Virus record (IMG/VR): IMGVR_UViG_2541047945_000001
DNA from: a virus
Lineage: Duplodnaviria > Heunggongvirae > Uroviricota > Caudoviricetes
Length of the DNA stretch: 21,088 nucleotides
Reading direction: 5' to 3' (one strand)
Shown here in pieces: positions 1-21,088 of the stretch. Position 1 is the first letter of the stretch; each line of letters begins with the position of its first letter. Below the pieces are notes generated by a model. That model was not told where the DNA came from. It ran no database searches and saw nothing but the letters and a program-made list of their open reading frames with translations. The position numbers and the translations under genes are program-made.

Positions 1-215
1 AGGTAATACACCGTAAGAGCTGGAAAAACCGTGCAGAAGTGGAACTGGCCACACTCACGTGGGTGGACTGGTATAACAATCGACGATTGCTGGAAAGGCT
101 GGGCCATACTCCTCCGGCAGAAGCAGAAAAAGCTTATTATGCTTCCATCGGAAACGATGATCTGGCAGCCTGAGTTCACAGATAAAATACTCTCCAGGAA
201 ACCCGGGGCGGTTCA
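1..215 (+). mobile_element. 3' end of an IS3-family insertion sequence (IS629/IS1203-like), truncated by the window edge; terminal inverted repeat ends ...CCCGGGGCGGTTCA at 215
   Basis: Frame-3 translation of 3..170 gives a transposase C-terminus (…ELATLTWVDWYNNRRLLERLGHTPPAEAEKAYYASIGNDDLAA, stop 171-173). Reverse complement of 171-215 reads TGAACCGCCCCGGGTTTCCTGGAGAG…, which matches my memory of the IS629 terminal repeat. Lambda O sequence resumes at 216. Confidence 0.75.
3..173 (+). CDS. IS3-family transposase (orfB-type), C-terminal fragment, 5' partial
   Basis: Open frame from the window edge to TGA at 171-173; WVDWYNNRRL motif typical of the IS3-family integrase-core C-terminus. Confidence 0.7.
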   Translation, partial: VIHRKSWKNRAEVELATLTWVDWYNNRRLLERLGHTPPAEAEKAYYASIGNDDLAA

Positions 216-509
216 GAGCGTAATGTGGCAGATCTCGATGATGGTTACGCCAGACTATCAAATATGCTGCTTGAGGCTTATTCAGGCGCAGATCTGACCA
301 AGCGACAGTTTAAAGTGCTGCTTGCCATTCTGCGTAAAACCTATGGGTGGAATAAACCAATGGACAGAATCACCGATTCTCAACTTAGCGAGATTACAAA
401 GTTACCCGTCAAACGGTGCAATGAAGCCAAGTTAGAACTCGTCAGAATGAATATTATCAAGCAGCAAGGCGGCATGTTTGGACCAAACAAAAACATCTCA
501 GAATGGTGC

Positions 510-597
510 ATCCCTCAAAACGAGGGAAAATCCCCTAAAACGAGGGATAAAACATCCCTCAAATTGGGGGATTGCTATCCCTCAAAACAGGGGGACA
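510..597 (+). repeat. ori-lambda iterons: four direct ~18-20 bp repeats (O-binding sites) inside the O coding sequence
   Basis: ATCCCTCAAAACGAGGGA / AATCCCCTAAAACGAGGGA / CATCCCTCAAATTGGGGGA / TATCCCTCAAAACAGGGGGA read directly at ~510-597. Confidence 0.9.
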
Positions 598-650
598 CAA
601 AAGACACTATTACAAAAGAAAAAAGAAAAGATTATTCGTCAGAGAATTCT
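598..650 (+). promoter_or_regulatory. AT-rich DNA-unwinding region of ori-lambda next to the iterons
   Basis: ACAAAAGACACTATTACAAAAGAAAAAAGAAAAGATTATTCG immediately 3' of iteron 4, as in lambda ori. Confidence 0.8.
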
Positions 651-1057
651 GGCGAATCCTCTGACCAGCCAGAAAACGACCTTTCTGTGGTGAAACCGGA
701 TGCTGCAATTCAGAGCGGCAGCAAGTGGGGGACAGCAGAAGACCTGACCGCCGCAGAGTGGATGTTTGACATGGTGAAGACCATCGCGCCATCAGCCAGA
801 AAACCGAATTTTGCAGGGTGGGCTAACGATATCCGCCTGATGCGTGAACGTGACGGACGTAACCACCGCGACATGTGCGTGCTGTTCCGCTGGGCATGCC
901 AGGACAACTTCTGGTCCGGTAACGTGCTTAGCCCGGCCAAACTCCGCGACAAGTGGACCCAGCTCGAAATCAACCGTAACAAGCAACAGGCAGTCGTGAC
1001 AGCCAGCAAACCAAAACTCGACCTGACAAACACAGACTGGATTTACGGGGTGGATCT

Positions 1058-1759
1058 ATGAAAAACATCGCCGCACAGATGGTTAACTTTGACCGTGAGC
1101 AGATGCGTAGGATCGCCAACAACATGCCGGAACAGTACGACGAAAAGCCGCAGGTACAGCAGGTAGCGCAGATCATCAACGGTGTGTTCAGCCAGTTACT
1201 GGCAACTTTCCCGGCGAGTCTGGCTAACCGTGACCAGAACGAACTGAACGAAATCCGCCGCCAGTGGGTTCTGGCTTTCCGGGAAAACGGGATCACCACA
1301 ATGGAACAGGTTAACGCAGGAATGCGCGTAGCCCGTCGGCAGAATCGACCATTTCTGCCATCACCCGGGCAGTTTGTTGCATGGTGCCGGGAAGAAGCAT
1401 CCGTTATCGCCGGACTGCCAAACGTCAGCGAGCTGGTTGATATGGTTTACGAGTATTGCCGGAAGCGAGGCCTGTATCCGGATGCGGAGTCTTATCCGTG
1501 GAAATCAAACGCGCACTACTGGCTGGTTACCAACCTGTATCAGAACATGCGGGCCAATGCGCTTACTGATGCGGAATTACGCCGTAAGGCCGCAGATGAG
1601 CTTGTCCATATGACTGCGAGAATTAACCGTGGTGAGGCGATCCCTGAACCAGTAAAACAACTTCCTGTCATGGGCGGTAGACCTCTAAATCGTGCACAGG
1701 CTCTGGCGAAGATCGCAGAACTCAAAGCTAAGTTCGGACTGAAAGGAGCAAGTGTATGA
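1058..1759 (+). CDS. P: Replication protein P (DnaB helicase loader)
   Basis: 233-aa ORF (MKNIAAQMVNFDREQMRRIANNMPEQYDEKPQVQQVAQIING…) collinear with lambda P; ATGA overlaps with O and ren. Confidence 0.95.
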   Translation: MKNIAAQMVNFDREQMRRIANNMPEQYDEKPQVQQVAQIINGVFSQLLATFPASLANRDQNELNEIRRQWVLAFRENGITTMEQVNAGMRVARRQNRPFLPSPGQFVAWCREEASVIAGLPNVSELVDMVYEYCRKRGLYPDAESYPWKSNAHYWLVTNLYQNMRANALTDAELRRKAADELVHMTARINRGEAIPEPVKQLPVMGGRPLNRAQALAKIAELKAKFGLKGASV

Positions 1760-2046
1760 CGGGCAAAGAGGCAATTATTCATTACCTGGGGACGCATAAT
1801 AGCTTCTGTGCGCCGGACGTTGCCGCGCTAACAGGCGCAACAGTAACCAGCATAAATCAGGCCGCGGCTAAAATGGCACGGGCAGGTCTTCTGGTTATCG
1901 AAGGTAAGGTCTGGCGAACGGTGTATTACCGGTTTGCTACCAGGGAAGAACGGGAAGGAAAGATGAGCACGAACCTAATTTTTAAGGAGTGTCGCCAGAG
2001 TGCCGCGATGAAACGGGTATTGGCGGTATATGGAGTTAAAAGATGA
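1756..2046 (+). CDS. ren: Ren protein (confers resistance to Rex exclusion)
   Basis: 96-aa ORF MTGKEAIIHYLGTHNSFCAPDVAALTGATVTSINQAAAKMARAGLLVIEGK… matches lambda Ren in length and sequence. Confidence 0.9.
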   Translation: MTGKEAIIHYLGTHNSFCAPDVAALTGATVTSINQAAAKMARAGLLVIEGKVWRTVYYRFATREEREGKMSTNLIFKECRQSAAMKRVLAVYGVKR

Positions 2047-2070
2047 CCATCTACATCACTGAGCTAATAA

Positions 2071-2103
2071 CAGGCCTGCTGGTAATTGCAGGCCTTTTTA
2101 TTT
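2071..2103 (+). terminator. Rho-independent terminator (tR2-like) between ren and ninB
   Basis: CAGGCCTGC-tggtaatt-GCAGGCCT stem-loop followed by TTTTTATTT. Confidence 0.75.
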
Positions 2104-2119
2104 GGGGGAGAGGGAAGTC

Positions 2120-2560
2120 ATGAAAAAACTAACCTTTGAAATTCGATCTCCAGCACATCAGCAAAACGCTATTCACGCGGTACAGCAAATTCTTCCAGAC
2201 CCAACCAAACCAATCGTAGTAACCATTCAGGAACGCAACCGCAGCTTAGACCAGAATCGAAAGCTTTGGGCTTGCCTTGGTGACGTCTCTCGTCAGGTTG
2301 AATGGCATGGTCGCTGGCTGGATGCAGAAAGCTGGAAGTGTGTGTTTACCGCAGCATTAAAGCAGCAGGATGTTGTTCCTAACCTTGCCGGGAATGGCTT
2401 TGTGGTAATAGGCCAGTCAACCAGCAGGATGCGTGTAAGCGAATTTGCGGAGCTATTAGAGCTTATACAGGCATTCGGTACAGAGCGTGGCGTTAAGTGG
2501 TCAGACGAAGCGCGACTGGCTCTCGAATGGAAAGCGCGATGGGGAGATCGGGCTGCATGA
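2120..2560 (+). CDS. ninB: NinB (Orf family recombination mediator)
   Basis: MKKLTFEIRSPAHQQNAIHAVQQILPDPTKPIVVTIQERNRSLDQNRKLWACLGD… (146 aa) matches lambda NinB. ATG at 2120 chosen over the upstream extension of ORF 2102. Confidence 0.92.
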   Translation: MKKLTFEIRSPAHQQNAIHAVQQILPDPTKPIVVTIQERNRSLDQNRKLWACLGDVSRQVEWHGRWLDAESWKCVFTAALKQQDVVPNLAGNGFVVIGQSTSRMRVSEFAELLELIQAFGTERGVKWSDEARLALEWKARWGDRAA

Positions 2561-3084
2561 CTATCAAATCAAATACGCCAGCACACGACAAGGACTGCTG
2601 GCAAACGCCGCTTTGGCTTTTTGATGCACTGGATATTGAGTTTGGATTCTGGCTGGATTCGGCAGCGAGCGACAAAAATGCTCTGTGCGCTCACTGGCTA
2701 ACTGAGGACGACGACGCGCTCAATTCTGAGTGGGTAAGCCACGGTGCAATCTGGAATAACCCACCGTACAGCAATATCAGGCCGTGGGTGGAAAAAGCCG
2801 CTGAGCAGTGTATACAACAGCGACAGACGGTAGTGATGCTTGTGCCAGAGGATATGTCTGTCGGATGGTTCAGCAAGGCTCTGGAGAGTGTTGACGAAGT
2901 TCGTATTATCACTGATGGACGGATTAATTTTATCGAACCATCGACAGGGCTGGAGAAGAATGGAAACAGCAAAGGCTCCATGCTGCTGATTTGGCGACCG
3001 TTCATCAGTCCTCGACGGATGTTTACTACCGTATCCAAAGCGGCATTGATGGCGATCGGGCAGGGCGTCAGGAGGGCTGCATGA
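2557..3084 (+). CDS. Phage DNA N6-adenine methyltransferase (Dam-like)
   Basis: [25 protein letters not shown]… with the NPPY catalytic motif (IWNNPPYSN); start overlaps the ninB stop (ATGA), stop overlaps the ninE start. Confidence 0.85.
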
Positions 3085-3257
3085 GACGACAGCGACGAAG
3101 CATCACCGACATAATCTGCGAAAACTGCAAATACCTTCCAACGAAATGCTCCAGAAATAAACGCAAGCTAATCCCAAAAGAATCTGACGTAAAAACCTTC
3201 AATTACACAGCCCACCTGTGGGATATCCGGTGGCTAAGATATCGTGCGAGGAAATGA
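3081..3257 (+). CDS. ninE: NinE
   Basis: [22 protein letters not shown]…[26 protein letters not shown] (58 aa) matches lambda NinE; ORF track 2991 is an upstream extension. Confidence 0.85.
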
Positions 3258-3259
3258 CA

Positions 3260-3601
3260 ATGGATTATTCACAGTTAAGTGATTTTGAAATTAACAGAAT
3301 GGTAGGAGACATAATTTTTAAAGGCCTTTGGGCAAGTAAACCGGAAACATCAGGGAATAACACCAACAAATGGTATTACGGAAATGCTGATACAACTTTT
3401 GAGCCATTAAATCATTTGCCTGACTACTGCAATGATCCGAGCGCTTCATGGCCGATTATTGAGAAATACAGGATTTCTATCTTAGACCAGTTAACTGAAT
3501 GGTGTGTGGATGCAAAAGGCGTAAGCCCAATATTTGATACCAGACCTCTCCGCGCCGCCATGATTGTCTTTCTCCTGATGCAGGAGGCCAATAATGCTTA
3601 G
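3260..3601 (+). CDS. NinX-like conserved hypothetical protein (function unknown), hydrophobic C-terminus
   Basis: [37 protein letters not shown]…[17 protein letters not shown] between ninE and ninF, the position of ninX in P22-type nin regions; AGGA RBS before ATG 3260 (alternative ATG at 3254). Confidence 0.6.
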
Positions 3602-3788
3602 CCCATCTCAATCCCTTCAATACCTGAAAGAAAGCATAGAGCGGGCTTCAATGTGCACAGAGTGGATTCTATCTAGGTTTAGCGCATACAGAAGATTGCC
3701 GGTAAAGGGCATGCCAAGCAAGTCGATGCTGCATATGCAAAAGAATGCGCGCTGGAAGGTATGGCGAGAACACAGGTTATGTGGCTAA
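3594..3788 (+). pseudogene. Chimeric ORF: ninF 5' end (first ~20 codons) running into unrelated sequence; probably a recombination scar, not a functional gene
   Basis: [18 protein letters not shown]… matches the lambda NinF N-terminus, then loses all resemblance (no Cys-rich NinF core). Confidence 0.5.
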
Positions 3789-3811
3789 AAGAGGGGGTTA
3801 TTAAGGCGTGA
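3677..3811 (+). pseudogene. 3' remnant of a DLP12 ybcO-like gene (frame 2), ending in an overlap with the rusA start
   Basis: Frame-2 translation …[29 protein letters not shown] resembles the YbcO C-terminus as I recall it; in-frame TAG at 3674-3676 closes it upstream; stop 3809-3811. Confidence 0.45.
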
Positions 3812-4170
3812 ATACCTACAGCATCACATTACCCTGGCCTCCGAGCAATAATCGCTATTACCGCCATAATCGCGGGCGCACGCACGTCAGCGCAGAGGGG
3901 CAGGCATACCGCGATAACGTCGCCCGAATCATTAAAAACGCAATGCTGGATATCGGCCTGGCTATGCCTGTGAAAATCCGCATTGAGTGCCACATGCCGG
4001 ATCGCCGTCGCCGTGACCTGGATAATCTGCAAAAAGCCGCTTTTGACGCACTCACTAAAGCAGGTTTCTGGCTGGATGATGCTCAGGTCGTTGATTACCG
4101 CGTTGTGAAGATGCCTGTTACCAAAGGTGGGAGGCTGGAACTGACCATCACCGAAATGGGGAATGAATGA
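3808..4170 (+). CDS. rusA: RusA Holliday-junction resolvase
   Basis: 120-aa [49 protein letters not shown]… essentially identical to E. coli DLP12 RusA; GTG start. Confidence 0.95.
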
Positions 4171-4307
4171 TGTTTGAGTTTAATATGGCAGAACTTCTTC
4201 GCCACCGCTGGGGGCGTCTGCGCTTATATCGTTTCCCCGGTTCTGTTTTGACCGATTACCGAATACTGAAGAATTACGCCAAAACCCTGACAGGAACAGG
4301 AGTATGA
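4167..4307 (+). CDS. ylcG: YlcG-like small protein (46 aa, function unknown)
   Basis: [46 protein letters not shown], overlapping the rusA stop; same position as ylcG in DLP12. Below the ORF-track length cutoff. Confidence 0.7.
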
Positions 4308-4392
4308 AGTCAGAGATAACAATCAACTAATACTGTTTTGTTGATTTTTGCTTGTAATTGGCGTTCTGGTCTGATTTTTGTGGAGTAAGTTG

Positions 4393-4776
4393 ATGCGTGA
4401 TATTCAGATGGTTCTTGAGCGTTGGGGTGCGTGGGCGGCTAATAATCATGAAGATGTGACCTGGTCGTCCATTGCCGCCGGTTTTAAGGGATTAATTCCT
4501 TCAAAAGTAAAATCTCGCCCGCAATGTTGTGACGATGACGCGATGATCATTTGCGGGTGCATGGCCCGTCTGAAAAAGAACAACAGCGATTTACACGATT
4601 TATTAGTAGATTATTATGTATGTGGTATGACATTCATGTCACTGGCAAGTAAGCATTGCTGCTCGGATGGTTATATCGGGAAAAGGTTACAGAAGGCTGA
4701 GGGCATAATTGAAGGGATGTTAATGGCATTAGATATCCGGTTAGATATGGATATCGTTGCTAATAATTCTAATTGA
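4393..4776 (+). CDS. quuD: Late-gene antiterminator Q (DLP12 QuuD / phage-21-82 class, not lambda Q)
   Basis: [62 protein letters not shown]… matches DLP12 QuuD; GGAG RBS 7 nt before ATG 4393. Confidence 0.9.
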
Positions 4777-4830
4777 TATGCAATTGTTTACTAAAAGTTA
4801 TTAAAAATGGGGCGTGGAAACGCCCCCAAA
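4777..4830 (+). promoter_or_regulatory. Candidate late promoter (pR'-equivalent) and qut region just downstream of Q, with GC hairpin GGGGCG-tggaaa-CGCCCC (4809-4826)
   Basis: Position by analogy with lambda pR'/qut; TTGATA…TTTACT…TATTAAAAAT motifs and a hairpin are visible, but the exact -35/-10 assignment is uncertain. Confidence 0.3.
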
Positions 4831-4912
4831 ATAAAGGGTAATATATAACAGAAGGTTTATATAGTAAGAAGCAAGGTAGTGCTTCTAAAGGAAGTGGCTT
4901 GAGGGCTCCACT

Positions 4913-4953
4913 TATATGTTGCGGAGGCAAAGCCTCCCGCAACATATCTTTTT
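4913..4953 (+). terminator. Rho-independent terminator, + strand (candidate tR' equivalent), in the Q-nmpC intergenic region
   Basis: TATATGTTGCGGAGGC-AAA-GCCTCCCGCAACATAT stem-loop followed by CTTTTT. Confidence 0.6.
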
Positions 4954-4964
4954 CGTAAGTCAGA

Positions 4965-6047
4965 TTAGAACTGATAAACCAGACCTACAGCGACGATGTC
5001 GTCGGTATCAATACCAGCTGTTTTGGTAAACTTACTATCGTCAATTAAGTTGATTTTGTAATCAACAAAAGTAGACATGTTTTTATTAAAGTAGTAAGTA
5101 GCACCGACATCGACATACTTGACTAAGTCTCGGTCACCATGAACACCAAGGTCTTTACCTTTTGACTGAAGGTAAGCAACAGATGGGCGCAGACCGAAGT
5201 CAAACTGATATTGTGCTACTGCTTCAAAGTTTTGTGCTTTGTTTGCAATATGGTTATTACCAAAAACGGTCATATTCTGAGTTTCAGAATATGTGGTAGC
5301 CAGATAGATATTGTTCGCATCATATTTCAGGCCTGCAGCCCATACTTCCGCATTTTTGCCGGAGGCATTGAATTTGCTCTTACCATAGGCGACCTGACCG
5401 TCAGTGCGATCTGATTTAGCATAGGTTGCACCCACGCCGAATCCTTCATACTCATAAGTAGTGGAGAAACCGAAACCATCACCATTGGCTTCAGTTACGT
5501 CAGTGCGGTCATTTTTACCCTGATACTGAGCAGCAAAGTTCAGGCCATCGACCAGACCAAAGAAGTCGTTGTTACGATAAGTTGCAACACCAGTAGTGCG
5601 ACCAGTCATGAACACATCTGTTTGGGTCCAGGTATCACCACCGAATTCTGGCAGAACGTCAGTCCACGCACCGATGTCGTATGCTACACCGTAGTTACGG
5701 CCGTAATCGATGGAGCCGTAATCACCAAATTTCAGGCCTGCAAATGCAAGACGGGTTTTGTCTTTGGAAGAACCTTGAGATTCAGCACGGTTGCCTTTGA
5801 ATTCATATTCCCACTGACCGAAACCAGTCAGTTGATCGTTGATTTGGGTTTCACCTTTGAAGCCAAGACGGGCATAAGTAGTATCACCATCATCTGCATC
5901 ATTAGAGGAGAAGTAGTGCTTGGCATTAACTTTCCCGTATAGATCCAGCTTGTTACTGTCTTTATTATAAATTTCAGCTGCCTGAGCAGACATCGCCATC
6001 AGTACTGATGCAGCTACAGCAGAAATTGCCACTGTTAATTTTTTCAT
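4965..6047 (-). CDS. nmpC: Outer-membrane general porin, NmpC/Lc (OmpC/OmpF family), intact with signal peptide
   Basis: Minus-strand ORF; [23 protein letters not shown] signal peptide then [16 protein letters not shown]… and C-terminal …VAVGLVYQF with terminal Phe. Start set at the MKK ATG, not the 20-codon upstream extension of the ORF track. Confidence 0.92.
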
Positions 6048-6473
6048 TGTACGCCCTTTTTTTGAACTATTATTAAAAAATGATGTCACTGCGCGATAAA
6101 TATTCATCTAATCAATGTGATTATTTCAAGATGTAAGTTTTAGTTTCTCATTTAATTTGTGAAGTAGATCTCTATTTTTATCTGAACCTTTTCTATCTAA
6201 TCCTATTCATGGCTCTTGTCTGAACAAAAATAAATCTATTAGCTAATTTATATTAATGGCACTTATTTATAAGTGCTCTATAATTCTTTAGCTTAATTTA
6301 AACAAACTAAAAATAACATCGGAAATTATTAACTGATTATTTGTTGAAGTTTTCTTATGTATTTGTGGTGGTGTTTTGAACACTCGGTGGCATTCTCACA
6401 AATATCATTTAGTAGTTTACGTACGTAAAAAATTGGTTATGCTGTTAAGAGTGGTTACTTCGTCACACAGCTT

Positions 6474-6506
6474 AAACCCGCCGTCGAGCGGGTTTTTCCA
6501 TTTTTT
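6474..6506 (+). terminator. Rho-independent terminator-like hairpin, + strand, ~130 bp upstream of the holin gene
   Basis: AAACCCGC-cgtcga-GCGGGTTT stem followed by TTCCATTTTTT. Confidence 0.55.
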
Positions 6507-6635
6507 GAGTCTCGATATTAGCTGATAACCCAATACCTGAGTTATTCACTGACTCCGAATCTGTTACGTTTCTGCCTTTATTGCGATACGTAATATCCCC
6601 TTAATTTACACCCGCTTTGTCTGCGAGGTGGGGTT

Positions 6636-6851
6636 ATGAAATCCATGGATAAGTTAACAACGGGTGTCGCCTATGGCACCTCAGCAGGTAGTGCCGGTTA
6701 CTGGTTTTTACAGCTGCTCGATAAAGTCACGCCCTCACAGTGGGCAGCAATAGGTGTGCTGGGTAGCCTGGTATTTGGCCTGCTGACGTACCTGACAAAC
6801 CTTTATTTCAAGATTAAAGAAGATAAGCGCAAGGCTGCGAGAGGTGAATAA
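6636..6851 (+). CDS. essD: Holin, phage-21 S21 pinholin class
   Basis: 71-aa [74 protein letters not shown], close to S21 / DLP12 EssD. Confidence 0.92.
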
Positions 6852-7348
6852 TGCCTCCATCATTACGAAAAGCCGTTGCTGCTGCTATTGGTGGCGGAGC
6901 AATTGCTATAGCATCAGTGTTAATCACTGGCCCAAGTGGTAACGATGGTCTGGAAGGTGTCAGCTACATACCATACAAAGATATTGTTGGTGTATGGACT
7001 GTATGTCACGGGCATACAGGAAAAGACATCATGCTCGGTAAAACGTATACCAAAGCAGAATGCAAAGCCCTCCTGAATAAAGACCTTGCCACGGTCGCCA
7101 GACAAATTAACCCGTACATCAAAGTCGATATACCGGAAACAATGCGCGGCGCTCTTTACTCATTCGTTTACAACGTGGGTGCTGGCAATTTCAGAACATC
7201 GACGCTTCTTCGCAAAATAAACCAGGGCGATATCAAAGGCGCATGTGATCAGCTACGTCGCTGGACATATGCTGGCGGTAAGCAATGGAAAGGTCTCATG
7301 ACTCGTCGTGAGATTGAGCGTGAAATCTGTTTGTGGGGTCAGCAATGA
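6851..7348 (+). CDS. rrrD: SAR (signal-anchor-release) endolysin, lysozyme family, R21-like
   Basis: 165-aa ORF with Gly/Ala-rich N-terminal SAR domain ([20 protein letters not shown]) then a lysozyme domain; start overlaps the holin stop. Confidence 0.9.
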
Positions 7349-7806
7349 ACAGAGTAACCGCGATTATCTCCGCTCTGGTTATCTGCATCATCGTCTGCCT
7401 GTCATGGGCTGTTAATCATTACCGTGATAACGCCATTACCTACAAAGCCCAGCGCGACAAAAATGCCAGAGAACTGAAGCTGGCGAACGCGGCAATTACT
7501 GACATGCAGATGCGTCAGCGTGATGTTGCTGCGCTCGATGCAAAATACACGAAGGAGTTAGCTGATGCGAAAGCTGAAAATGATGCTCTGCGTGATGATG
7601 TTGCCGCTGGTCGTCGTCGGTTGCACATCAAAGCAGTCTGTCAGTCAGTGCGTGAAGCCACCACCGCCTCCGGCGTGGATAATGCAGCCTCCCCCCGACT
7701 GGCAGACACCGCTGAACGGGATTATTTCACCCTCAGAGAGAGGCTGATCACTATGCAAAAACAACTGGAAGGAACCCAGAAGTATATTAATGAGCAGTGC
7801 AGATAG
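7345..7806 (+). CDS. rzpD: Rz i-spanin (inner-membrane spanin)
   Basis: [26 protein letters not shown]… with N-terminal TM helix and coiled-coil-like remainder; overlaps the endolysin end. Confidence 0.9.
7565..7747 (+). CDS. rzoD: Rz1 o-spanin lipoprotein, nested in the +1 frame of Rz
   Basis: [52 protein letters not shown]…: lipobox LVVVGC and proline-rich body, wholly inside Rz. Confidence 0.85.
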
Positions 7807-7837
7807 AGCTGCCCATATCGATGGGCAACTCATGCAA

Positions 7838-8131
7838 TTATTGTGAGCAATACACACGCGCTTCCAGCGGAGTATAAATGCCTAAAGTAATAAAACCGAG
7901 AAATCCATTTACGAATGTTTGCTGGGTTTCTGTTTTAACAACATTTTCTGCGCCGCCACAAATTTTGGCTGCATCAACAGTTTTCTCCTGTCCAATTCCC
8001 GAAACGAAGAAATGATGGGTGATGGTTTCCTTTGGTGTTACTGCTGTCGGTTTGTTTCCAACAGTAAACGTCTGTTGAGCACATCCTGTAATAAGCATTG
8101 CCAGAGCGGCAGAAAACAACATTTTTTTCAT
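7838..8131 (-). CDS. bor: Bor outer-membrane lipoprotein (serum-resistance moron)
   Basis: MKKMLFSAALAMLITGCAQQTFTVGNKPTAVTPKETITHHFFVSGIGQEKTVDAAKICGGAENVVKTETQQTFVNG…ARVYCSQ (97 aa) matches lambda Bor; AGGA RBS before ATG 8131; ORF track 8179 is an upstream extension. Confidence 0.92.
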   Translation of the reverse strand: MKKMLFSAALAMLITGCAQQTFTVGNKPTAVTPKETITHHFFVSGIGQEKTVDAAKICGGAENVVKTETQQTFVNGFLGFITLGIYTPLEARVYCSQ

Positions 8132-8247
8132 CTTATTATCCTGCATTGTTAAAAACGGCAGAATCCTATGTGACAACAATTAAACGATAGTTAAATGGAT
8201 TGATGAAAATTAAAACTATATAGGTGGATGCTCAGCCTATTGGAGGA

Positions 8248-8256
8248 GGGGGGGGG
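8248..8256. repeat. Homopolymeric G9 tract in a non-coding region
   Basis: GGAGGAGGGGGGGGGCAC read directly. Confidence 0.9.
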
Positions 8257-8493
8257 CACTCAGAATCCTGTGGAATGAAATAAACCGCTCTATCTGTCCA
8301 TTACCCTTTTAGCTGCGCTGTATCGTCGCCGTATTCCCGCATTAACCATGACCGTAGCCCGACGGGGAATTCCTTCTGCGTGAGTGTGCGGGAATAATCA
8401 AAAACGATGCACACCGGGTTTTACTGTGCTGACAGACGCAGGGTTACCCTCATAGTCGCTTTTCCGGTGCGATGGTGGAAGAAACCGGGATGT

Positions 8494-8688
8494 TCATCCA
8501 TCATCACTTTGGATTGATGTATATGCTCTCTTTTCTGACGTTAGTCTCCGACGGCAGGCTTCAATGACCCAGGCTGAGAAATTCCCAGACCCTTTTTGCT
8601 CAAGAGCGATGTTAATTTGTTCAATCATTTGGTTAGGAAAGCGGATGTTGCGGGTTGTTGTTCTGCGGGTTCTGTTCTTCGTTGACAT
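8494..8688 (-). CDS. ylcI: Small YlcI-like protein (DUF3950 from memory), predicted ribbon-helix-helix DNA-binding fold; function unknown
   Basis: 64-aa minus-strand ORF MSTKNRTRRTTTRNIRFPNQMIEQINIALEQKGSGNFSAWVIEACRRRLTSEKRAY… with a strand / helix / G-x-S-G turn / helix pattern; sits where ylcI lies in DLP12. Confidence 0.55.
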   Translation of the reverse strand: MSTKNRTRRTTTRNIRFPNQMIEQINIALEQKGSGNFSAWVIEACRRRLTSEKRAYTSIQSDDG

Positions 8689-8839
8689 GAGGTTGCCCCG
8701 TATTCAGTGTCGCTGATTTGTATTGTCTGAAGTTGTTTTTACGTTAAGTTGATGCAGATCAATTAATATGATACCTGCGTCATAATTGATTATTTGACGT
8801 GGTTTGATGGCGTAGATGCACGTTGTGACATGCAGATGA

Positions 8840-9060
8840 TAATTATTATCATTTTGCGGGTCCTTTCCGGCGATCCGACAGGTTACGGGGCGGCGACCTC
8901 GCGGGTTTTCGCTATTTATGAAAATTTTCCGGTTTAAGGCGTTTCCGTTCTTCTTCGTCATAACTTAATGTTTTTATTTAAAATACCCTCTGAAAAGAAA
9001 GGAAACGACAGGTGCTGAAAGCGAGCTTTTTGGCCTCTGTCGTTTCCTTTCTCTGTTTTT
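8840..9060 (+). other. cos: cos site (cosQ-cosN-cosB): cosN 12-nt cohesive end GGGCGGCGACCT at 8888-8899; cosB with gpNu1 R elements and an AT-rich IHF-like region
   Basis: …GATCCGACAGGTTACG|GGGCGGCGACCTCGCGGGTTTTCGCTATTTATGAAAATTTTCCGG… is the lambda right-end/left-end junction; R3 CGTTTCCGTTC ~8941, inverted R2 GAAAGGAAACGACAG ~8997-9011 and R1 CTGTCGTTTCCTTTC ~9038-9052. Confidence 0.93.
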
Positions 9061-9076
9061 GTCCGTGGAATGAACA

Positions 9077-9596
9077 ATGGAAGTCAACAAAAAGCAGCTG
9101 GCTGACATTTTCGGTGCGAGTATCCGTACCATTCAGAACTGGCAGGAACAGGGAATGCCCGTTCTGCGAGGCGGTGGCAAGGGTAATGAGGTGCTTTATG
9201 ACTCTGCCGCCGTCATAAAATGGTATGCCGAAAGGGATGCTGAAATTGAGAACGAAAAGCTGCGCCGGGAAGTTGAAGAACTGCGGCAGGCCAGCGAGAC
9301 AGATCTCCAGCCAGGGACTATTGAGTACGAACGCCACCGACTTACGCGTGCACAGGCCGACGCACAGGAGCTGAAAAATGCCAGAGACTCCGCTGAAGTG
9401 GTGGAAACCGCATTCTGTACTTTCGTGCTGTCGCGGATCGCAGGTGAAATTGCCAGTATTCTCGACGGGATCCCCCTGTCGGTGCAGCGGCGTTTTCCGG
9501 AACTGGAAAACCGACATGTTGATTTCCTGAAACGGGATATCATCAAAGCCATGAACAAAGCAGCCGCGCTGGATGAACTGATACCGGGGTTGCTGA

Positions 9597-9622
<26 letters not shown>
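9077..9622 (+). CDS. Nu1: Terminase small subunit gpNu1
   Basis: 181-aa ORF MEVNKKQLADIFGASIRTIQNWQEQGMPVLRGGGKGNEVLYD… essentially identical to lambda Nu1. Confidence 0.97.
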
Positions 9623-13303
<3,681 letters not shown>

Positions 13304-13323
<20 letters not shown>

Positions 13324-14623
13324 TCTCCCGCATATTGCCAGTATGGCCTTTAATGAGCCGCTGATGCTTGAACCCGCCTATGCGCGGGTTTTCTTTTGTG
13401 CGCTTGCAGGCCAGCTTGGGATCAGCCGCCTGACGGATGCGGTATCCGGCGACAGCCTGACTGCCGGAGAGGCACCCGCGGCGCTGGCGTTATCCGTTGA
13501 TGATGACGGACCACGACAGGCCCGCAGTTATCAGGTCATGAACGGCATCGCCGTGCTGCCGGTGTCCGGCACGCTGGTCAGTCGGACGCGGGCGCTGCAG
13601 CCGTATTCGGGGATGACCGGTTACAACGGCATTATCGCCCGTTTGCAACAGGCTGCCAGCGACCCGATGGTGGACGGCATTCTGCTCGATATGGATACGC
13701 CAGGCGGGATGGTGGCAGGGGCATTTGACTGCGCTGACATCATCGCCCGTGTGCGTGACATAAAGCCGGTATGGGCGCTGGCCAACGACATGAACTGCAG
13801 TGCAGGTCAGCTGCTTGCCAGCGCCGCCTCCCGACGTCTGGTCACGCAGACCGCCCGGACAGGCTCCATCGGCGTCATGATGGCTCACAGTAATTACGGT
13901 GCTGCGCTGGAGAAACAGGGCGTGGAAATCACGCTGATTTACAGCGGCAGCCATAAGGTGGATGGCAACCCCTACAGCCATCTTCCGGATGACGTCCGGG
14001 AGACACTGCAGTCCCGGATGGATGCAACCCGCCGGATGTTTGCGCAGAAGGTGTCGGCATATACCGGCCTGTCCGTGCAGGCTGTGCTGGATACCGAGGC
14101 TGCAGTGTACAGCGGTCAGGAGGCCATTGATGCCGGACTGGCTGATGAACTTGTCAACAGCACCGATGCGATCACCGTTATGCGTGATGCACTGGATGCA
14201 CGTAAATCCCGTCTCTCAGGAGGGCGAATGACCAAAGAGACTCAATCAACAACTGTTTCAGCCACTGCTTCGCAGGCTGACGTTACTGACGTGGTGCCAG
14301 CGACGGAGGGCGAAAACGCCAGCGCGGCGCAGCCGGACGTGAACGCGCAGATCACCGCTGCGGTTGCGGCAGAAAACAGCCGCATTATGGGGATCCTCAA
14401 CTGTGAGGAGGCTCACGGACGCGAAGAACAGGCCCGCGTGCTGGCAGAAACCCCCGGTATGACCGTGGAAACGGCCCGCCGCATTCTGGCCGCAGCACCA
14501 CAGAGTGCACAGGCGCGCAGTGACACTGCGCTGGATCGTCTGATGCAGGGGGCACCGGCACCGCTGGCTGCAGGTAACCCGGCATCTGATGCCGTTAACG
14601 ATTTGCTGAACACACCAGTGTAA
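13304..14623 (+). CDS. C: Head protease / minor capsid protein gpC
   Basis: GTG start at 13304 after RBS GAGGAGGAGA; VTAELRNLPHIASMAFNEPLMLEPAYARVFF… 439 codons as in lambda gpC. ORF track 13169 is an upstream extension overlapping B. Confidence 0.93.
14228..14623 (+). CDS. Nu3: Scaffolding protein gpNu3, in-frame internal start within C
   Basis: Internal ATG at 14228 (MTKETQSTTVSATASQADVTDVVPATEGENASAAQPDV…), in frame with C and sharing its stop, as in lambda. Confidence 0.85.
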   Translation: MTKETQSTTVSATASQADVTDVVPATEGENASAAQPDVNAQITAAVAAENSRIMGILNCEEAHGREEQARVLAETPGMTVETARRILAAAPQSAQARSDTALDRLMQGAPAPLAAGNPASDAVNDLLNTPV

Positions 14624-14632
14624 GGGATGTTT

Positions 14633-14965
14633 ATGACGAGCAAAGAAACCTTTACCCATTACCAGCCGCTGGGCAACAGTGACCCGGCTCATACCGCAAC
14701 CGCGCCCGGCGGATTGAGTGCGAAAGCGCCTGCAATGACCCCGCTGATGCTGGACACCTCCACCCGTAAGCTGGTTGCGTGGGATGGCACCACCGACGGT
14801 GCTGCCGTTGGCATTCTTGCGGTTGCTGCTGACCAGACCAGCACCACACTGACGTTCTACAAGTCCGGCACGTTCCGTTATGAGGATGTGCTCTGGCCGG
14901 AGGCTGCCAGCGACGAGACGAAAAAACGGACCGCGTTTGCCGGAACGGCAATCAGCATCGTTTAA
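14633..14965 (+). CDS. D: Head decoration protein gpD
   Basis: [43 protein letters not shown]… (110 aa) matches lambda gpD; third ATG of ORF 14627. Confidence 0.95.
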
Positions 14966-14985
14966 CTTTACCCTTCATCACTAAA

Positions 14986-15006
14986 GGCCGCCTGTGCGGC
15001 TTTTTT
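14986..15006 (+). terminator. Terminator-like hairpin between D and E (likely an attenuator or mRNA-stability element within the late operon)
   Basis: GCCGC-CTGT-GCGGC stem followed by TTTTTT, 14 nt before the E start. Confidence 0.5.
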
Positions 15007-15019
15007 ACGGGATTTTTTT

Positions 15020-16045
15020 ATGTCGATGTACACAACCGCCCAGCTGCTGGCGGCAAATGAGCAGAAATTTAAGTTTGATCCGCTGTTTCTGCGTCTCTTT
15101 TTCCGTGAGAGCTATCCCTTCACTACGGAGAAAGTCTATCTCTCACAAATTCCGGGACTGGTAAACATGGCGCTGTACGTTTCGCCGATTGTTTCCGGTG
15201 AGGTTATCCGCTCCCGTGGCGGCTCCACCTCTGAATTTACGCCGGGATATGTCAAACCCAAGCATGAGGTGAATCCGCAGATGACCCTGCGTCGCCTGCC
15301 GGATGAAGATCCGCAGAATCTGGCGGACCCGGCTTACCGCCGCCGTCGCATCATCATGCAGAACATGCGTGACGAAGAGCTGGCCATTGCTCAGGTCGAA
15401 GAGATGCAGGCCGTTTCTGCCGTGCTCAAGGGCAAATACACCATGACCGGTGAAGCCTTCGATCCGGTTGAGGTGGATATGGGCCGCAGTGCGGCCAACA
15501 ACATCACGCAGTCCGGCGGCACGGAGTGGAGCAAGCGTGACAAGTCCACGTATGATCCGACCGACGATATCGAAGCCTACGCGCTGAACGCCAGCGGCGT
15601 GGTGAATATCATCGTGTTTGATCCGAAAGGCTGGGCGCTGTTCCGTTCCTTCAAAGCCGTCAGGGAGAAGCTGGATACCCGTCGCGGCTCTCATTCCGAA
15701 CTGGAGACAGCGGTAAAAGACCTGGGCAAAGCGGTGTCTTATAAGGGAATGTATGGAGATGTGGCCATCGTCGTGTATTCCGGACAGTACGTGGAAAACG
15801 GCGTCAAAAAGAACTTCCTGCCGGACAACACGATGGTGCTGGGTAACACTCATGCACGCGGTCTGCGCACCTATGGCTGTATTCAGGATGCGGATGCATT
15901 GAGTGAGGGTATTAATGCGTCTCCCCGTTATCCGAAAAACTGGAAGACATCCGGCGATCCGGCGCGAGAGTTCACCATGATTCAGTCAGCACCGCTGATG
16001 CTGCTGGCTGACCCTGATGAGTTCGTGTCCGTACAACTGGCGTAA
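15020..16045 (+). CDS. E: Major capsid protein gpE
   Basis: 341-aa ORF MSMYTTAQLLAANEQKFKFDPLFLRLFFRESYPFTTEKVYLSQIPG… collinear with lambda gpE. Confidence 0.97.
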   Translation: MSMYTTAQLLAANEQKFKFDPLFLRLFFRESYPFTTEKVYLSQIPGLVNMALYVSPIVSGEVIRSRGGSTSEFTPGYVKPKHEVNPQMTLRRLPDEDPQNLADPAYRRRRIIMQNMRDEELAIAQVEEMQAVSAVLKGKYTMTGEAFDPVEVDMGRSAANNITQSGGTEWSKRDKSTYDPTDDIEAYALNASGVVNIIVFDPKGWALFRSFKAVREKLDTRRGSHSELETAVKDLGKAVSYKGMYGDVAIVVYSGQYVENGVKKNFLPDNTMVLGNTHARGLRTYGCIQDADALSEGINASPRYPKNWKTSGDPAREFTMIQSAPLMLLADPDEFVSVQLA

Positions 16046-18595: not shown

Positions 18596-19018
18596 ATGTT
18601 CCTGAAAACCGAATCATTTGAATATAACGGTGTGAGCGTCACGCTTTCTGAACTGTCAGCCCTGCAGCGAATTGAGCATCTCGCCCTGCTGAAACGACAG
18701 GCAGAACAGGCGGGATCCAGTCTCAATCGACAGGTGAGCGTGGAAGATCTCGTCAGAACCGGTGCTTTTCTGGTGGCGATGTCCCTGTGGCATAGCCATC
18801 CGCAGAAGACAAAGATGCCGTCCATGAATGAAGCCGTTAAACAAATTGAGCAGGAAGGGCTTACCACCTGGCCCACAGAGGCAATTGCTCAGGCTGAAAA
18901 TGTGGTAATGCGTCTGTCCGGTATGTCTGAGTTTGTTGTGAATGATGCACCTGAACAGGCAGATGACGCCGGGCCAGCAGAGCCTGTTTCTGCGGGAAAG
19001 TGTTCGACGGTGAGCTGA
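18596..19018 (+). CDS. G: Tail assembly chaperone gpG
   Basis: 140-aa ORF MFLKTESFEYNGVSVTLSELSALQRIEHLALLKRQAEQ…PVSAGKCSTVS matches lambda gpG. Confidence 0.95.
   Translation: MFLKTESFEYNGVSVTLSELSALQRIEHLALLKRQAEQAGSSLNRQVSVEDLVRTGAFLVAMSLWHSHPQKTKMPSMNEAVKQIEQEGLTTWPTEAIAQAENVVMRLSGMSEFVVNDAPEQADDAGPAEPVSAGKCSTVS
18994..19000 (+). other. Programmed -1 ribosomal frameshift slippery heptamer G GGA AAG near the 3' end of G (produces the gpG-T fusion)
   Basis: GGGAAAG in X XXY YYZ register relative to the G frame; the -1 frame continues as the T ORF (…GKVFDGELSFALK…). Confidence 0.85.
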
Positions 19019-19434
19019 GTTTTGCCCTGAAACTGGCGCGTGAGATGGGGCGACCCGACTGGCGCGCCATGCTTGCCGGGATGTCATCCACGGAGTATGC
19101 CGACTGGCACCGCTTTTACAGTACCCATTATTTTCATGATGTTCTGCTGGATATGCACTTTTCCGGGCTGACGTACACCGTACTCAGCCTGTTTTTCAGC
19201 GATCCGGATATGCATCCGCTGGATTTCAGTCTGCTGAACCGGCGCGAGGCTGATGAAGAGCCTGAAGATGATGTGCTGATGCAGAAAGCGGCAGGGCTTG
19301 CCGGAGGCGTCCGCTTTGGCCCGGACGGGAATGAAGTTATCCCCGCTTCCCCGGATGTGGCGGACATGACGGAGGATGACGTAATGCTGATGACAGTATC
19401 AGAAGGGATCGCAGGAGGAGTCAGGTATGGCTGA
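19000..19434 (+). CDS. T: gpT segment of the tail assembly chaperone, expressed only as a G-T fusion by -1 frameshifting (no independent start expected)
   Basis: ORF 19000..19434 (…FDGELSFALKLAREMGRPDWRAMLAGMSSTEYADWHRFYSTHYFHDV…) matches lambda gpT and lies in the -1 frame relative to G. Confidence 0.9.
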   Translation: MFDGELSFALKLAREMGRPDWRAMLAGMSSTEYADWHRFYSTHYFHDVLLDMHFSGLTYTVLSLFFSDPDMHPLDFSLLNRREADEEPEDDVLMQKAAGLAGGVRFGPDGNEVIPASPDVADMTEDDVMLMTVSEGIAGGVRYG

Positions 19435-21088
19435 ACCGGTAGGCGATCTGGTCGTTGATTTGAGTCTGGATGCGGCCAGATTTGACGAGCAGATGGCCAG
19501 AGTCAGGCGTCATTTTTCCGGTACGGAAAGTGATGCGAAAAAAACAGCGGCAGTCGTTGAACAGTCAATGAACCGGCAGGCGCTGGCTGCACAGAAAGCG
19601 GGGATTTCCGTCGGACAGTATAAAGCCGCCATGCGTATGCTGCCTGCACAGTTCACCGACGTGGCCACGCAGCTTGCAGGCGGGCAAAGTCCGTGGCTGA
19701 TCCTGCTGCAACAGGGTGGTCAGGTGAAGGACTCCTTCGGCGGGATGATCCCCATGTTCAGGGGGCTTGCCGGTGCGATCACCCTGCCGATGGTCGGGGC
19801 CACCTCGCTGGCGGTGGCGACCGGTGCGCTGGCGTATGCCTGGTATCAGGGCAACTCAACCCTGTCCGATTTCAACAAAACGCTGGTCCTTTCCGGCAAT
19901 CAGTCGGGTCTGACGGCAGATCGCATGCTGGTCCTGTCCAGAGCCGGGCAGGCGGCAGGGCTGACGTTTAACCAGACCAGCGAGTCACTCAGCGCACTGG
20001 TTAAGGCGGGAGTAAGCGGTGAGGCTCAGATTGCGTCCATCAGCCAGAGTGTGGCGCGTTTCTCCTCTGCATCCGGTGTGGAGGTGGACAAGGTCGCTGA
20101 AGCCTTCGGGAAGCTGACCACAGACCCGACGTCGGGGTTGACGGCGATGGCACGCCAGTTCCATAACGTGACGGCGGAGCAGATTGCGTATGTTGCTCAG
20201 TTGCAGCGTTCCGGCGATGAAGCCGGGGCATTGCAGGCGGCGAACGAGGCCGCGACGAAAGGGTTTGATGACCAGACCCGCCGCCTGAAAGAGAACATGG
20301 GTACGCTGGAGACCTGGGCAGACAGGACCGCGCGGGCATTCAAATCCATGTGGGATGCGGTGCTGGATATTGGTCGTCCTGATACCGCGCAGGAGATGCT
20401 GATTAAGGCAGAGGCTGCGTTTAAGAAAGCGGACGACATCTGGAGTCTGCGCAAGGATGATTATTTTGTTAACGATGAAGCGCGGGCGCGTTACTGGGAT
20501 GATCGTGAAAAGGCCCGTCTTGCGCTTGAAGCCGCGAGAAAGAAGGCTGAACAGCAGAGTCAACAGGACACAAATGCGCAGCAGCAGAGCGATACTGAAG
20601 CGTCACGGCTGAAATATACCGAAGAGGCGCAGAAGGCTTACGAACGGCTGCAGACGCCGCTGGAGAAATATACCGCCCGTCAGGAAGAACTGAACAAGGC
20701 ACTGAAGGACGGGAAAATTCTGCAGGCAGATTACAACACGCTGATGGCGGCGGCGAAAAAGGACTATGAAGCGACGCTGAAAAAGCCGAAACAGTCCGGC
20801 GTGAAGGTGTCTGCGGGCGATCGTCAGGAAGACAGTGCTCATGCTGCCCTGCTGACGCTTCAGGCTGAACTCCGGACGCTGGAGAAGCATGCCGGAGCAA
20901 ATGAGAAAATCAGCCAGCAGCGCCGGGATTTGTGGAAGGCGGAGAGTCAGTTCGCGGTACTGGAGGAGGCAGCGCAACGTCGCCAGCTGTCTGCACAGGA
21001 GAAATCCCTGCTGGCGCATAAAGATGAGACGCTGGAGTACAAACGCCAGCTGGCTGCACTTGGCGACAAGGTTACGTATCAGGAGCGC
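19427..21088 (+). CDS. H: Tail tape-measure protein gpH, 3' partial (runs off the window end)
   Basis: ATG at 19427 overlapping the T stop; MAEPVGDLVVDLSLDAARFDEQMARVRRHF… matches the lambda gpH N-terminus; the frame stays open for 554 codons to the window end (not listed in the ORF track, presumably because no stop is reached). Confidence 0.93.
   Translation, partial: MAEPVGDLVVDLSLDAARFDEQMARVRRHFSGTESDAKKTAAVVEQSMNRQALAAQKAGISVGQYKAAMRMLPAQFTDVATQLAGGQSPWLILLQQGGQVKDSFGGMIPMFRGLAGAITLPMVGATSLAVATGALAYAWYQGNSTLSDFNKTLVLSGNQSGLTADRMLVLSRAGQAAGLTFNQTSESLSALVKAGVSGEAQIASISQSVARFSSASGVEVDKVAEAFGKLTTDPTSGLTAMARQFHNVTAEQIAYVAQLQRSGDEAGALQAANEAATKGFDDQTRRLKENMGTLETWADRTARAFKSMWDAVLDIGRPDTAQEMLIKAEAAFKKADDIWSLRKDDYFVNDEARARYWDDREKARLALEAARKKAEQQSQQDTNAQQQSDTEASRLKYTEEAQKAYERLQTPLEKYTARQEELNKALKDGKILQADYNTLMAAAKKDYEATLKKPKQSGVKVSAGDRQEDSAHAALLTLQAELRTLEKHAGANEKISQQRRDLWKAESQFAVLEEAAQRRQLSAQEKSLLAHKDETLEYKRQLAALGDKVTYQER

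Follow-up and report, generated by a model that had tools for sequence, protein, structure and literature searches.

The IS629 element with which the window (the entire stretch of 21,088 nucleotides analyzed here) begins very probably marks the site where 9.3 kb have been deleted from a PhiR11_1-like prophage of the lambda family, which lies at the lambda attachment site near ybhC and has been left replication-dead and cryptic. Sequence comparisons indicate that the replication gene O is truncated by this IS-bounded deletion and is not split by a simple insertion. A sequence-only reading of the same DNA had correctly recognized the type of the IS, the loss of the 5' end of O and the intact ori-lambda, but its central structural claim, that the whole IS merely separates O from its first codons, is not supported. 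The window stops inside the IS; what lies to the left of the element is inferred from three public assemblies that are nearly identical to the window (0-6 mismatches over the overlaps).

The IS629 element at the start of the window

Window positions 1-215 (plus strand, like all genes and repeats given below for the window) correspond to positions 1096-1310, the right end, of a 1,310-bp IS629, and the window accordingly opens inside the element. They equal positions 20001-20215 of the assembly NZ_CM128543.1, in which the complete element occupies 18906-20215 (1,310 bp). Its terminal inverted repeats are imperfect, 41 nt long and of the form TGAACCGCCCCGGG... / ...CCCGGGGCGGTTCA, with TG at the start and CA at the end; the right repeat, ending ...CCCGGGGCGGTTCA, lies at window 175-215, where the 41-nt arm is 78% complementary to the left repeat at 18906-18946 of the same assembly. 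Over the full 1,310 bp the element is 99.9% identical to the copies in LC567824.1 and LC567828.1, labelled 'IS3 family IS629' by their depositors, which bears out the earlier assignment of an IS3-family, IS629-type element ending at 215. Identity is lower, ~92-95.5%, to O157 copies labelled IS1203 and to the isoform present in two of the other O lesions described below (L008 and L017). By these comparisons the element is plain IS629, not just 'IS629-like', and the copy in the near-identical assembly is, judged from its sequence, intact.

The C-terminal 56 codons of OrfB remain in the window (frame 3-170, with the TGA stop at 171-173). Their translation matches the integrase-core profiles rve_3 and rve_2 at scores that the shortness of the fragment keeps under the curated cut-offs; in profile searches the full orfB of the complete element matches HTH_21, rve and rve_3 as well as the NCBIfam model transpos_IS3 (315.6 bits), and orfA matches HTH_Tnp_1. 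RefSeq annotates a programmed frameshift joining orfA and orfB, and Rfam recognizes the ALIL frameshift pseudoknot (120 bits) in the IS copy of the assembly OZ038772.1; an Rfam scan over the whole window gave zero matches. More than 20 places in NZ_CM128543.1 match IS629. As the IS and O matches are near-exact to canonical sequences, chance similarity is not an issue for either.

The left side of the IS

Three assemblies that share the junction extend to the left of it. In NZ_CM128543.1 the window corresponds to positions 20001-41088, with 6 mismatches in 21,088 bases, all of them within window 11012-13546 and thus ~11 kb or more from the junction. OZ038772.1 shows 3 mismatches in 11,061 bases and carries a group II intron inside its IS, while the contig IMG 2541047946 (an IMG isolate; L010) has 1 mismatch over 11,668 overlapping bases. 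The left end of the IS adjoins the ea8.5 side of the lambda map, at lambda 29707, in all three, and the 5' end of O is found there in none. In NZ_CM128543.1 this left flank comprises lambda 27724-29707, that is attL-int-xis-orf55-ea8.5, beside the chromosomal gene ybhC. The sequence-only reading had placed the missing start of O (~17 codons) and its promoter side just beyond the IS, and had expected that extension upstream would recover both this displaced 5' end and a target-site duplication; ea8.5 takes its place in 3/3 assemblies, and neither feature is present in any of them.

The flanks read ...CAGCAATG | IS | GAGCGTAATG..., or in short AATG | IS | GAGC, and there is no 3-4 bp target-site duplication around the window-type IS629 in these three assemblies. 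IS629 typically generates target duplications of 3-4 bp, and only 21 of the 47 IS629 copies in O157 retain one (PMC3271280). The missing duplication points to a copy located at a rearrangement junction and is no argument against its identity as IS629. The observed IS-O junction is rare: among 5,426 complete E. coli genomes a single one contains it as one piece, and a junction scan of IMG/VR turned up nothing but this junction again, in L010. Draft contigs encoding the same truncated O protein (L005) end inside the IS.

Extent of the deletion

The closest complete phage is PhiR11_1 (PV340547.1), a lambda-family phage whose record gives E. coli K-12 MG1655 as the host; no publication on it was found. 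Window 216-21088 aligns with it in a single alignment at 99.6% identity, and the two flanks of the IS are 100% identical to it, the left one being PhiR11_1 1-1964 and the right one starting at 11259. Between the breakpoints PhiR11_1 has 9,294 bp (1965-11258), which IS629 replaces. On the right side the boundary falls between window 215 and 216, where the last base of IS629 is followed by the equivalent of lambda 38740 (PhiR11_1 11259).

The left part of the deleted interval holds ea22, a traR-like gene, orf61, orf63, orf60a, exo, bet, gam and ea10, and the right part ral, sieB, N, two genes in the rex position, cI, cro, cII and O codons 1-18. The control sites within the interval are pL, pR/pRM, nutL/R and oop, the last of which we take to lie at lambda ~38599-38675, inside the interval. 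To the right of the IS everything from O codon 19 onward is kept: ori, P, ren, the nin region, Q, the lysis genes and the head and tail genes. PhiR11_1 and the prophage are alike in int, xis, ea8.5, O, P, nin, Q, the porin gene and the lysis and head/tail genes, and differ in that PhiR11_1 has the 9,294 bp with cI, cro, cII, N, the recombination genes and a full-length O.

From window 216 to ~6000 there are zero differences from PhiR11_1. The 78 differences that do occur are clustered in the head genes at 11-16 kb, a distribution that resembles a recombination patch rather than decay. Outside the IS the window shares 99.6% identity with PhiR11_1, and the PhiR11_1 genes mapped to it are all open (29 of 29), which makes the lesion look recent.

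The truncated O gene and the intact origin

Window 216 aligns with lambda 38740, and the ATG of lambda O lies at 38686; position 216 is therefore the first base of codon 19, and exactly 18 codons are missing. The earlier statement that O resumes at 216 was accurate, but the count of ~17 missing codons was one too few. The truncated O (codons 19-299 and the stop, window 216-1061) shares 98.8% DNA identity with lambda 38740-39585 and 100% with PhiR11_1. Over its whole remaining length (E19 to the stop codon, 1059-1061) the protein differs from lambda O solely by G278V. The gene lacks codons 1-18, its ATG, the native Shine-Dalgarno sequence and the native promoter. In this respect the description of O as severed from its 5' end, promoter and start was right, with the qualification that O is truncated by an IS-bounded 9.3-kb deletion rather than split. 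The transposase and O share one frame, as had been noted together with the TGA at 171-173, and a second stop, TAA at 183-185, also stands between them.

The first in-frame start in O is the GTG at 225, which is Val22 of lambda O. It opens the longest remaining O reading frame (225-1061, 278 aa), for which RefSeq has the entry WP_021572736.1, 'replication protein'. The sole Shine-Dalgarno-like element upstream of this GTG is a GAG 7-9 nt away. The encoded product matches TIGR01610 with 132.8 bits over profile positions 1-95 of 95 and PF04492 with 123.2 bits over profile positions 2-95 of 95 (94/95 positions); in full-length lambda O the PF04492 domain spans residues 22-115. Any O' made from GTG 225 would, on this evidence, keep the conserved N-terminal origin-binding domain. 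A sequence search of the PDB for an O structure that would allow us to judge whether residues 1-21 are structural returned no solved structure; the crystallized origin-binding domain of O reportedly starts at residue 19.

Inside O, the four 18-bp iterons of ori-lambda lie at 510-527, 530-547, 554-571 and 577-594 (510-594 as a whole, equal to lambda 39034-39118), followed by the AT-rich unwinding region at 596-636, which is base-identical to lambda 39120-39160. With the limits of ori taken from PMC3349717, the iterons and the AT-rich stretch together (510-636) match lambda 39034-39160 base for base, in full agreement with the earlier view that they are intact. Gene P, encoding the helicase loader, is likewise intact (1058-1759, annotated 'replication protein P'), with 0 amino acid differences from P of PhiR11_1.

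Proposed origin of the junction

The right flank of the IS begins with GAG, O codon 19, and insertion of IS629 at this triplet was therefore the likely first step. In a second step the DNA beside the left end of the IS would have disappeared, either through a deletion of the transposase/IEE type that starts next to the IS or through homologous recombination between this copy and another IS629 in direct orientation, located between ea8.5 and ea22. Deletions adjacent to IS629 that involve the IEE protein range from a few bp to >40 kb, according to the account of Kusumoto 2011 given in PMC9943667. Both routes would leave a single IS with unrelated 3-bp flanks, as is seen here, and the sequence fits either. 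A parental state carrying the insertion alone was not found.

The left end of the IS lies outside the window, and from the window alone a simple IS629 insertion would be conceivable, with O codons 1-18, cII, cro and pR following just past the left end and a 3-bp duplication around the element. Such insertions of IS629-family elements in or near lambdoid O do exist, with duplications of TTA in L008 and GAC in L017. Nevertheless, all three of the junction-sharing assemblies that extend to the left have ea8.5 in this position and no duplication, and the window differs from these assemblies by at most 6 SNPs, none closer than 11 kb to the junction. Moreover, none of the 5,426 complete E. coli genomes contains, in one piece, an artificial junction of O codons 1-18, GAG and the left end of IS629 (O5'-GAG-IRL); we regard a simple insertion as exceedingly improbable. 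A different rearrangement would be an inversion or translocation of the 9.3-kb early region by recombination between two IS copies, after which the immunity region and the 5' end of O would persist elsewhere in the chromosome. The many IS629 copies (>20 matching places in NZ_CM128543.1) would offer partners for it, and such an exchange would likewise leave no target-site duplication. It predicts reciprocal junctions, however, and both O5'-GAG-IRL and its counterpart, IRR-ATG on the ea22 side, are missing from the complete genomes, NZ_CM128543.1 included (the latter, too, is contiguous in 0/5,426). These queries assume that the other breakpoints carry exactly those sequences and would miss an exchange whose partner IS lay at some unrelated locus; with this latitude an inversion or translocation is still highly improbable, and a deletion bounded by IS629 is the reading we adopt below.

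Expression and predicted consequences

The consequences of the deletion follow from established lambda biology, from which they are inferred. With neither repressor nor operators there is nothing to induce, and the loss of N, pL, pI and cII leaves no route to the expression of int and xis. The near-identical assemblies lack the pR region; without pR, no native transcription reaches O and P, and ori is deprived of activation in cis, for which ori-lambda requires transcription from pR or an equivalent through or near ori (PMC5043065). Induction of the prophage and firing of its origin should consequently both be impossible. The earlier expectation that it cannot replicate autonomously probably stands, and was if anything understated, since cI, cro, N, cII, pL, pR and oop are lost along with the start of O. 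We view the prophage as presumably fixed, replication-dead and cryptic, with its origin DNA and late genes still pristine.

Two ways of rescuing O had been envisaged. The one that relies on GTG 225 is sound insofar as this codon is in frame with the whole N-terminal domain; the other, an outward promoter in the IS, found no support in a consensus scan. No consensus sigma-70 promoter was detected on either strand in the IS or in O' at a threshold of 9/12 hexamer matches, fewer than in shuffled sequence, and a consensus scan detected no plus-strand terminator between orfB and O'. Promoter scans that rely on the consensus alone let the weak promoter of IS629 itself escape, and some read-through into O' is possible. 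Residual O' could thus arise only by weak IS629 read-through combined with initiation at GTG 225 from a poor ribosome-binding site. The entry 'replication protein' at 225-1061 is best taken as a remnant and not as a working initiator.

A functional junction would require that IS629 read-through yields active O (residues 22-299) together with P and activates ori in cis, in the manner of the c17 and ri-c mutations, which create promoters. The reading frame from GTG 225 does retain 100% of TIGR01610 and 94/95 of the PF04492 positions, the origin and P are perfect, no plus-strand terminator intervenes between orfB and O', and new constitutive upstream promoters are known to activate ori-lambda (PMC5043065). 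Yet no consensus promoter is present in the IS or at its right end, and GTG 225 is served by GAG alone as a Shine-Dalgarno-like element, both of which make such activity very unlikely. The outcomes that it would have, either low-level firing of the origin in situ or a decoy of O and iterons against incoming lambda-type phages, are just as unlikely. Constitutive firing of ori-lambda in situ is lethal through replicative killing (PMC3349717), and the locus is stably inherited. As for a decoy, plasmid-borne iterons can inhibit rep-lambda phages, but the published inhibition phenotype needs oop and pO besides the iterons (PMC3349717), and one ori copy in the chromosome would titrate poorly. Both oop and pO fall in the deleted interval; a decoy or exclusion role is unlikely for this reason, and the oop/iteron inhibition phenotype was set aside as a function of the locus.

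IS629-family lesions in other lambdoid O genes

Searches for further IS629-family copies in lambdoid O genes recovered a series of lesions, whose junctions are given in PhiR11_1 coordinates unless stated otherwise and in which the IS has the plus orientation with a single exception. Simple insertions are seen in MS 119-7 (L008), between the Shine-Dalgarno sequence and the ATG of O with the target duplication TTA, and in O103:H2 FWSEC0007 (L017), at the boundary of iteron 4 and the AT-rich region, inside ori, with the duplication GAC. In O145:H28 RM12761 (left junction 11431, right 12045) a 613-bp deletion has removed ori, and rightward deletions extend over 3.7 kb in FDAARGOS_1301 (left 11648, right 15356) and over 2.8 kb in FY26 (left 11756, right 14545). 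The metagenome contig ERZ1673739 (L006) has its right junction 9 bp deeper in O than the window, at lambda 38749, and its left side is unassembled; it was the only contig with an IS-O junction within 30 bp in the metagenome scan, L011 being the same contig.

The exception in orientation is LC-1302-2020 (L009), which has the same prophage and the same attB as the window. Its IS is inverted and accompanied by a deletion into int (left junction 943, right 11262), and the right junction, at lambda 38743, is 3 bp from that of the window. No single known IS rearrangement was found that would derive this structure from one of the window type.

Three independent junctions accordingly fall within 10 bp of each other, at lambda 38740 (the window), 38743 (L009, with the IS in the opposite orientation) and 38749 (L006), and at least 5 further junctions are located either up to ~500 bp further on or shortly before the ATG, most of them with adjacent deletions. 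A left end of IS629 within ~570 bp was found in 10 genomes for the O query and in 0 for a matched control query with the 5' end of P, a comparison that is small, biased by the design of the search and uncorrected for shared ancestry. It is conceivable, if rather doubtful, that the 5' half of lambdoid O including ori is a preferred target of IS629-family elements, or that insertions there are selectively retained as they make prophages replication-dead. This apparent clustering of independent IS629 events in O/ori is the only lead that goes beyond the ordinary.

Relationship to known systems

IS629-associated gene disruption and IS-adjacent deletions have been described in EHEC prophages (PMC3271280, PMC4587872, PMC9943667), with Ooka et al. 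2009 and Kusumoto et al. 2011 cited for such events in PMC9943667. The element in those prophages is the same (99.9-100% identical), and the preference for prophage DNA is also common to the locus studied here, 62% of the IS629 copies in O157 residing in prophages or prophage-like elements. The outcome is shared too, namely gene inactivation with a deletion extending from the end of the IS and an IS lacking a target duplication. The host here is not necessarily an EHEC strain; the genomes nearest to the present locus are human isolates from Israel and elsewhere. The junction ea8.5 | IS629 | O codon 19 was not found in the IS629 literature examined. Taken together, the lesion is IS-driven prophage decay of a known and ordinary kind, with nothing new in kind.

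The cryptic lambdoid prophages of K-12 (DLP12, Rac and Qin) are old and heavily eroded elements. They resemble the present prophage in being locked in the chromosome after the loss of early functions, and cryptic lambdoid prophages keep lysis, porin and bor-type genes, as this one does; RefSeq uses DLP12 gene names at the locus (essD, rrrD, rzpD and quuD). Unlike the K-12 elements, the locus here is otherwise indistinguishable from a viable phage. The engineered Y836 fragments are chromosome-locked in the same manner, but they have retained cI857-pR-O-P, so that derepression leads to replicative killing (PMC3349717), whereas pR and cI are missing here. The locus thus offers a very recent example of how one IS and one adjacent deletion can reduce a viable temperate phage to a cryptic prophage that is fixed in the chromosome. 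The element is to be scored as defective, non-inducible and incapable of excision or replication, despite an origin and late genes that look perfect. Its porin gene, its bor/iss gene and a full set of virion genes remain available for recombination with incoming phages.

IS629 insertions in the O genes of lambdoid prophages

The 278-aa reading frame that begins at GTG 225 in the truncated O of the window is encoded in identical form by a metagenome contig (ERZ1673739 NODE_1266, loci L006 and L011), whose lambdoid prophage is other than that of the window, being 96% identical and differing in the terminase region. In this contig the end of an IS629 isoform (1-60) lies directly before GTGGCAG, 9 bp deeper in O than the junction of the window, and the same reading frame has therefore been reached there through an independent event. 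The look-up for this locus pointed to at least 16 similar places besides the matches listed. A second case is found in strain LC-1302-2020 (NZ_CP091756.1), where both the prophage and its attachment site are as in the window. Here a 100% identical IS629 is present in inverted orientation (locus L009, 4716-6025), its junction with O falls at lambda 38743, exactly 3 bp off that of the window, and the accompanying deletion extends into int, to position 943 of PhiR11_1, the closest complete phage. No single known rearrangement that would yield this arrangement from the ea8.5-IS629-O' structure of the window was found, and the element may represent an independent insertion.

Evidence against an assembly artefact at the junction comes from OZ038772.1 (locus L004), whose IS629 sits at the same ea8.5-IS-O' junction and departs from identity only in a group II intron of approximately 2.26 kb (L004 7207-9467) lodged within orfB of the element. 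This intron contains a 507-aa ORF with RVT_1 and GIIM domains and matches the Rfam Intron_gpII model at L004 9390-9476 (64.9 bits); it dates an additional event in that strain.

Beyond these cases, IS629-family elements break the O/ori region of lambdoid prophages at no fewer than five more positions in other E. coli genomes (MS 119-7, FY26, FDAARGOS_1301, O145:H28 RM12761 and O103:H2 FWSEC0007), three of these loci also displaying rightward deletions of 0.6-3.7 kb. IS629 occurred near O in 10 genomes versus 0 for a matched control with gene P, these being raw counts, uncorrected for phylogeny and for the way in which the cases came to light. Such clustering in O/ori could mean that the region is a hotspot for insertion, or that selection favours prophages unable to replicate. 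The early-right operon has taken further IS strikes as well: in numerous chromosomes of STEC and of avian E. coli (matches H2-H25), the right end of an IS629-family element lies 330-580 bp upstream of the equivalent of window position 216, within or close to cII and cro of their lambdoid prophages.

Head and cargo genes

PhiR11_1 is identical to the window from 216 to about 6000, and 70 of the 78 differences between the two fall within 11012-16045, which spans the genes for terminase, portal, scaffold and capsid; all six differences from the near-identical chromosome NZ_CM128543.1 likewise lie in genes of these four kinds. The differences in 11012-16045 leave every gene open, and from the sequence comparison they look like a recombination patch rather than decay. 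Two cargo genes on the minus strand, for an OmpC/OmpD-like porin between Q and the lysis genes (4965-6107) and for a Bor/Iss lipoprotein just past the latter (7838-8146), are intact and show no difference from their PhiR11_1 copies. Through these products the crippled prophage could continue to benefit its host.

Among the phage records, MW057783.1 ('Campylobacter phage CJLB-4', 48,361 bp) agrees with lambda to 98.7-98.8% in both int-xis and O-P, with coordinates almost equal to those of lambda itself; judged by these matches, it looks like lambda DNA filed under a different name.
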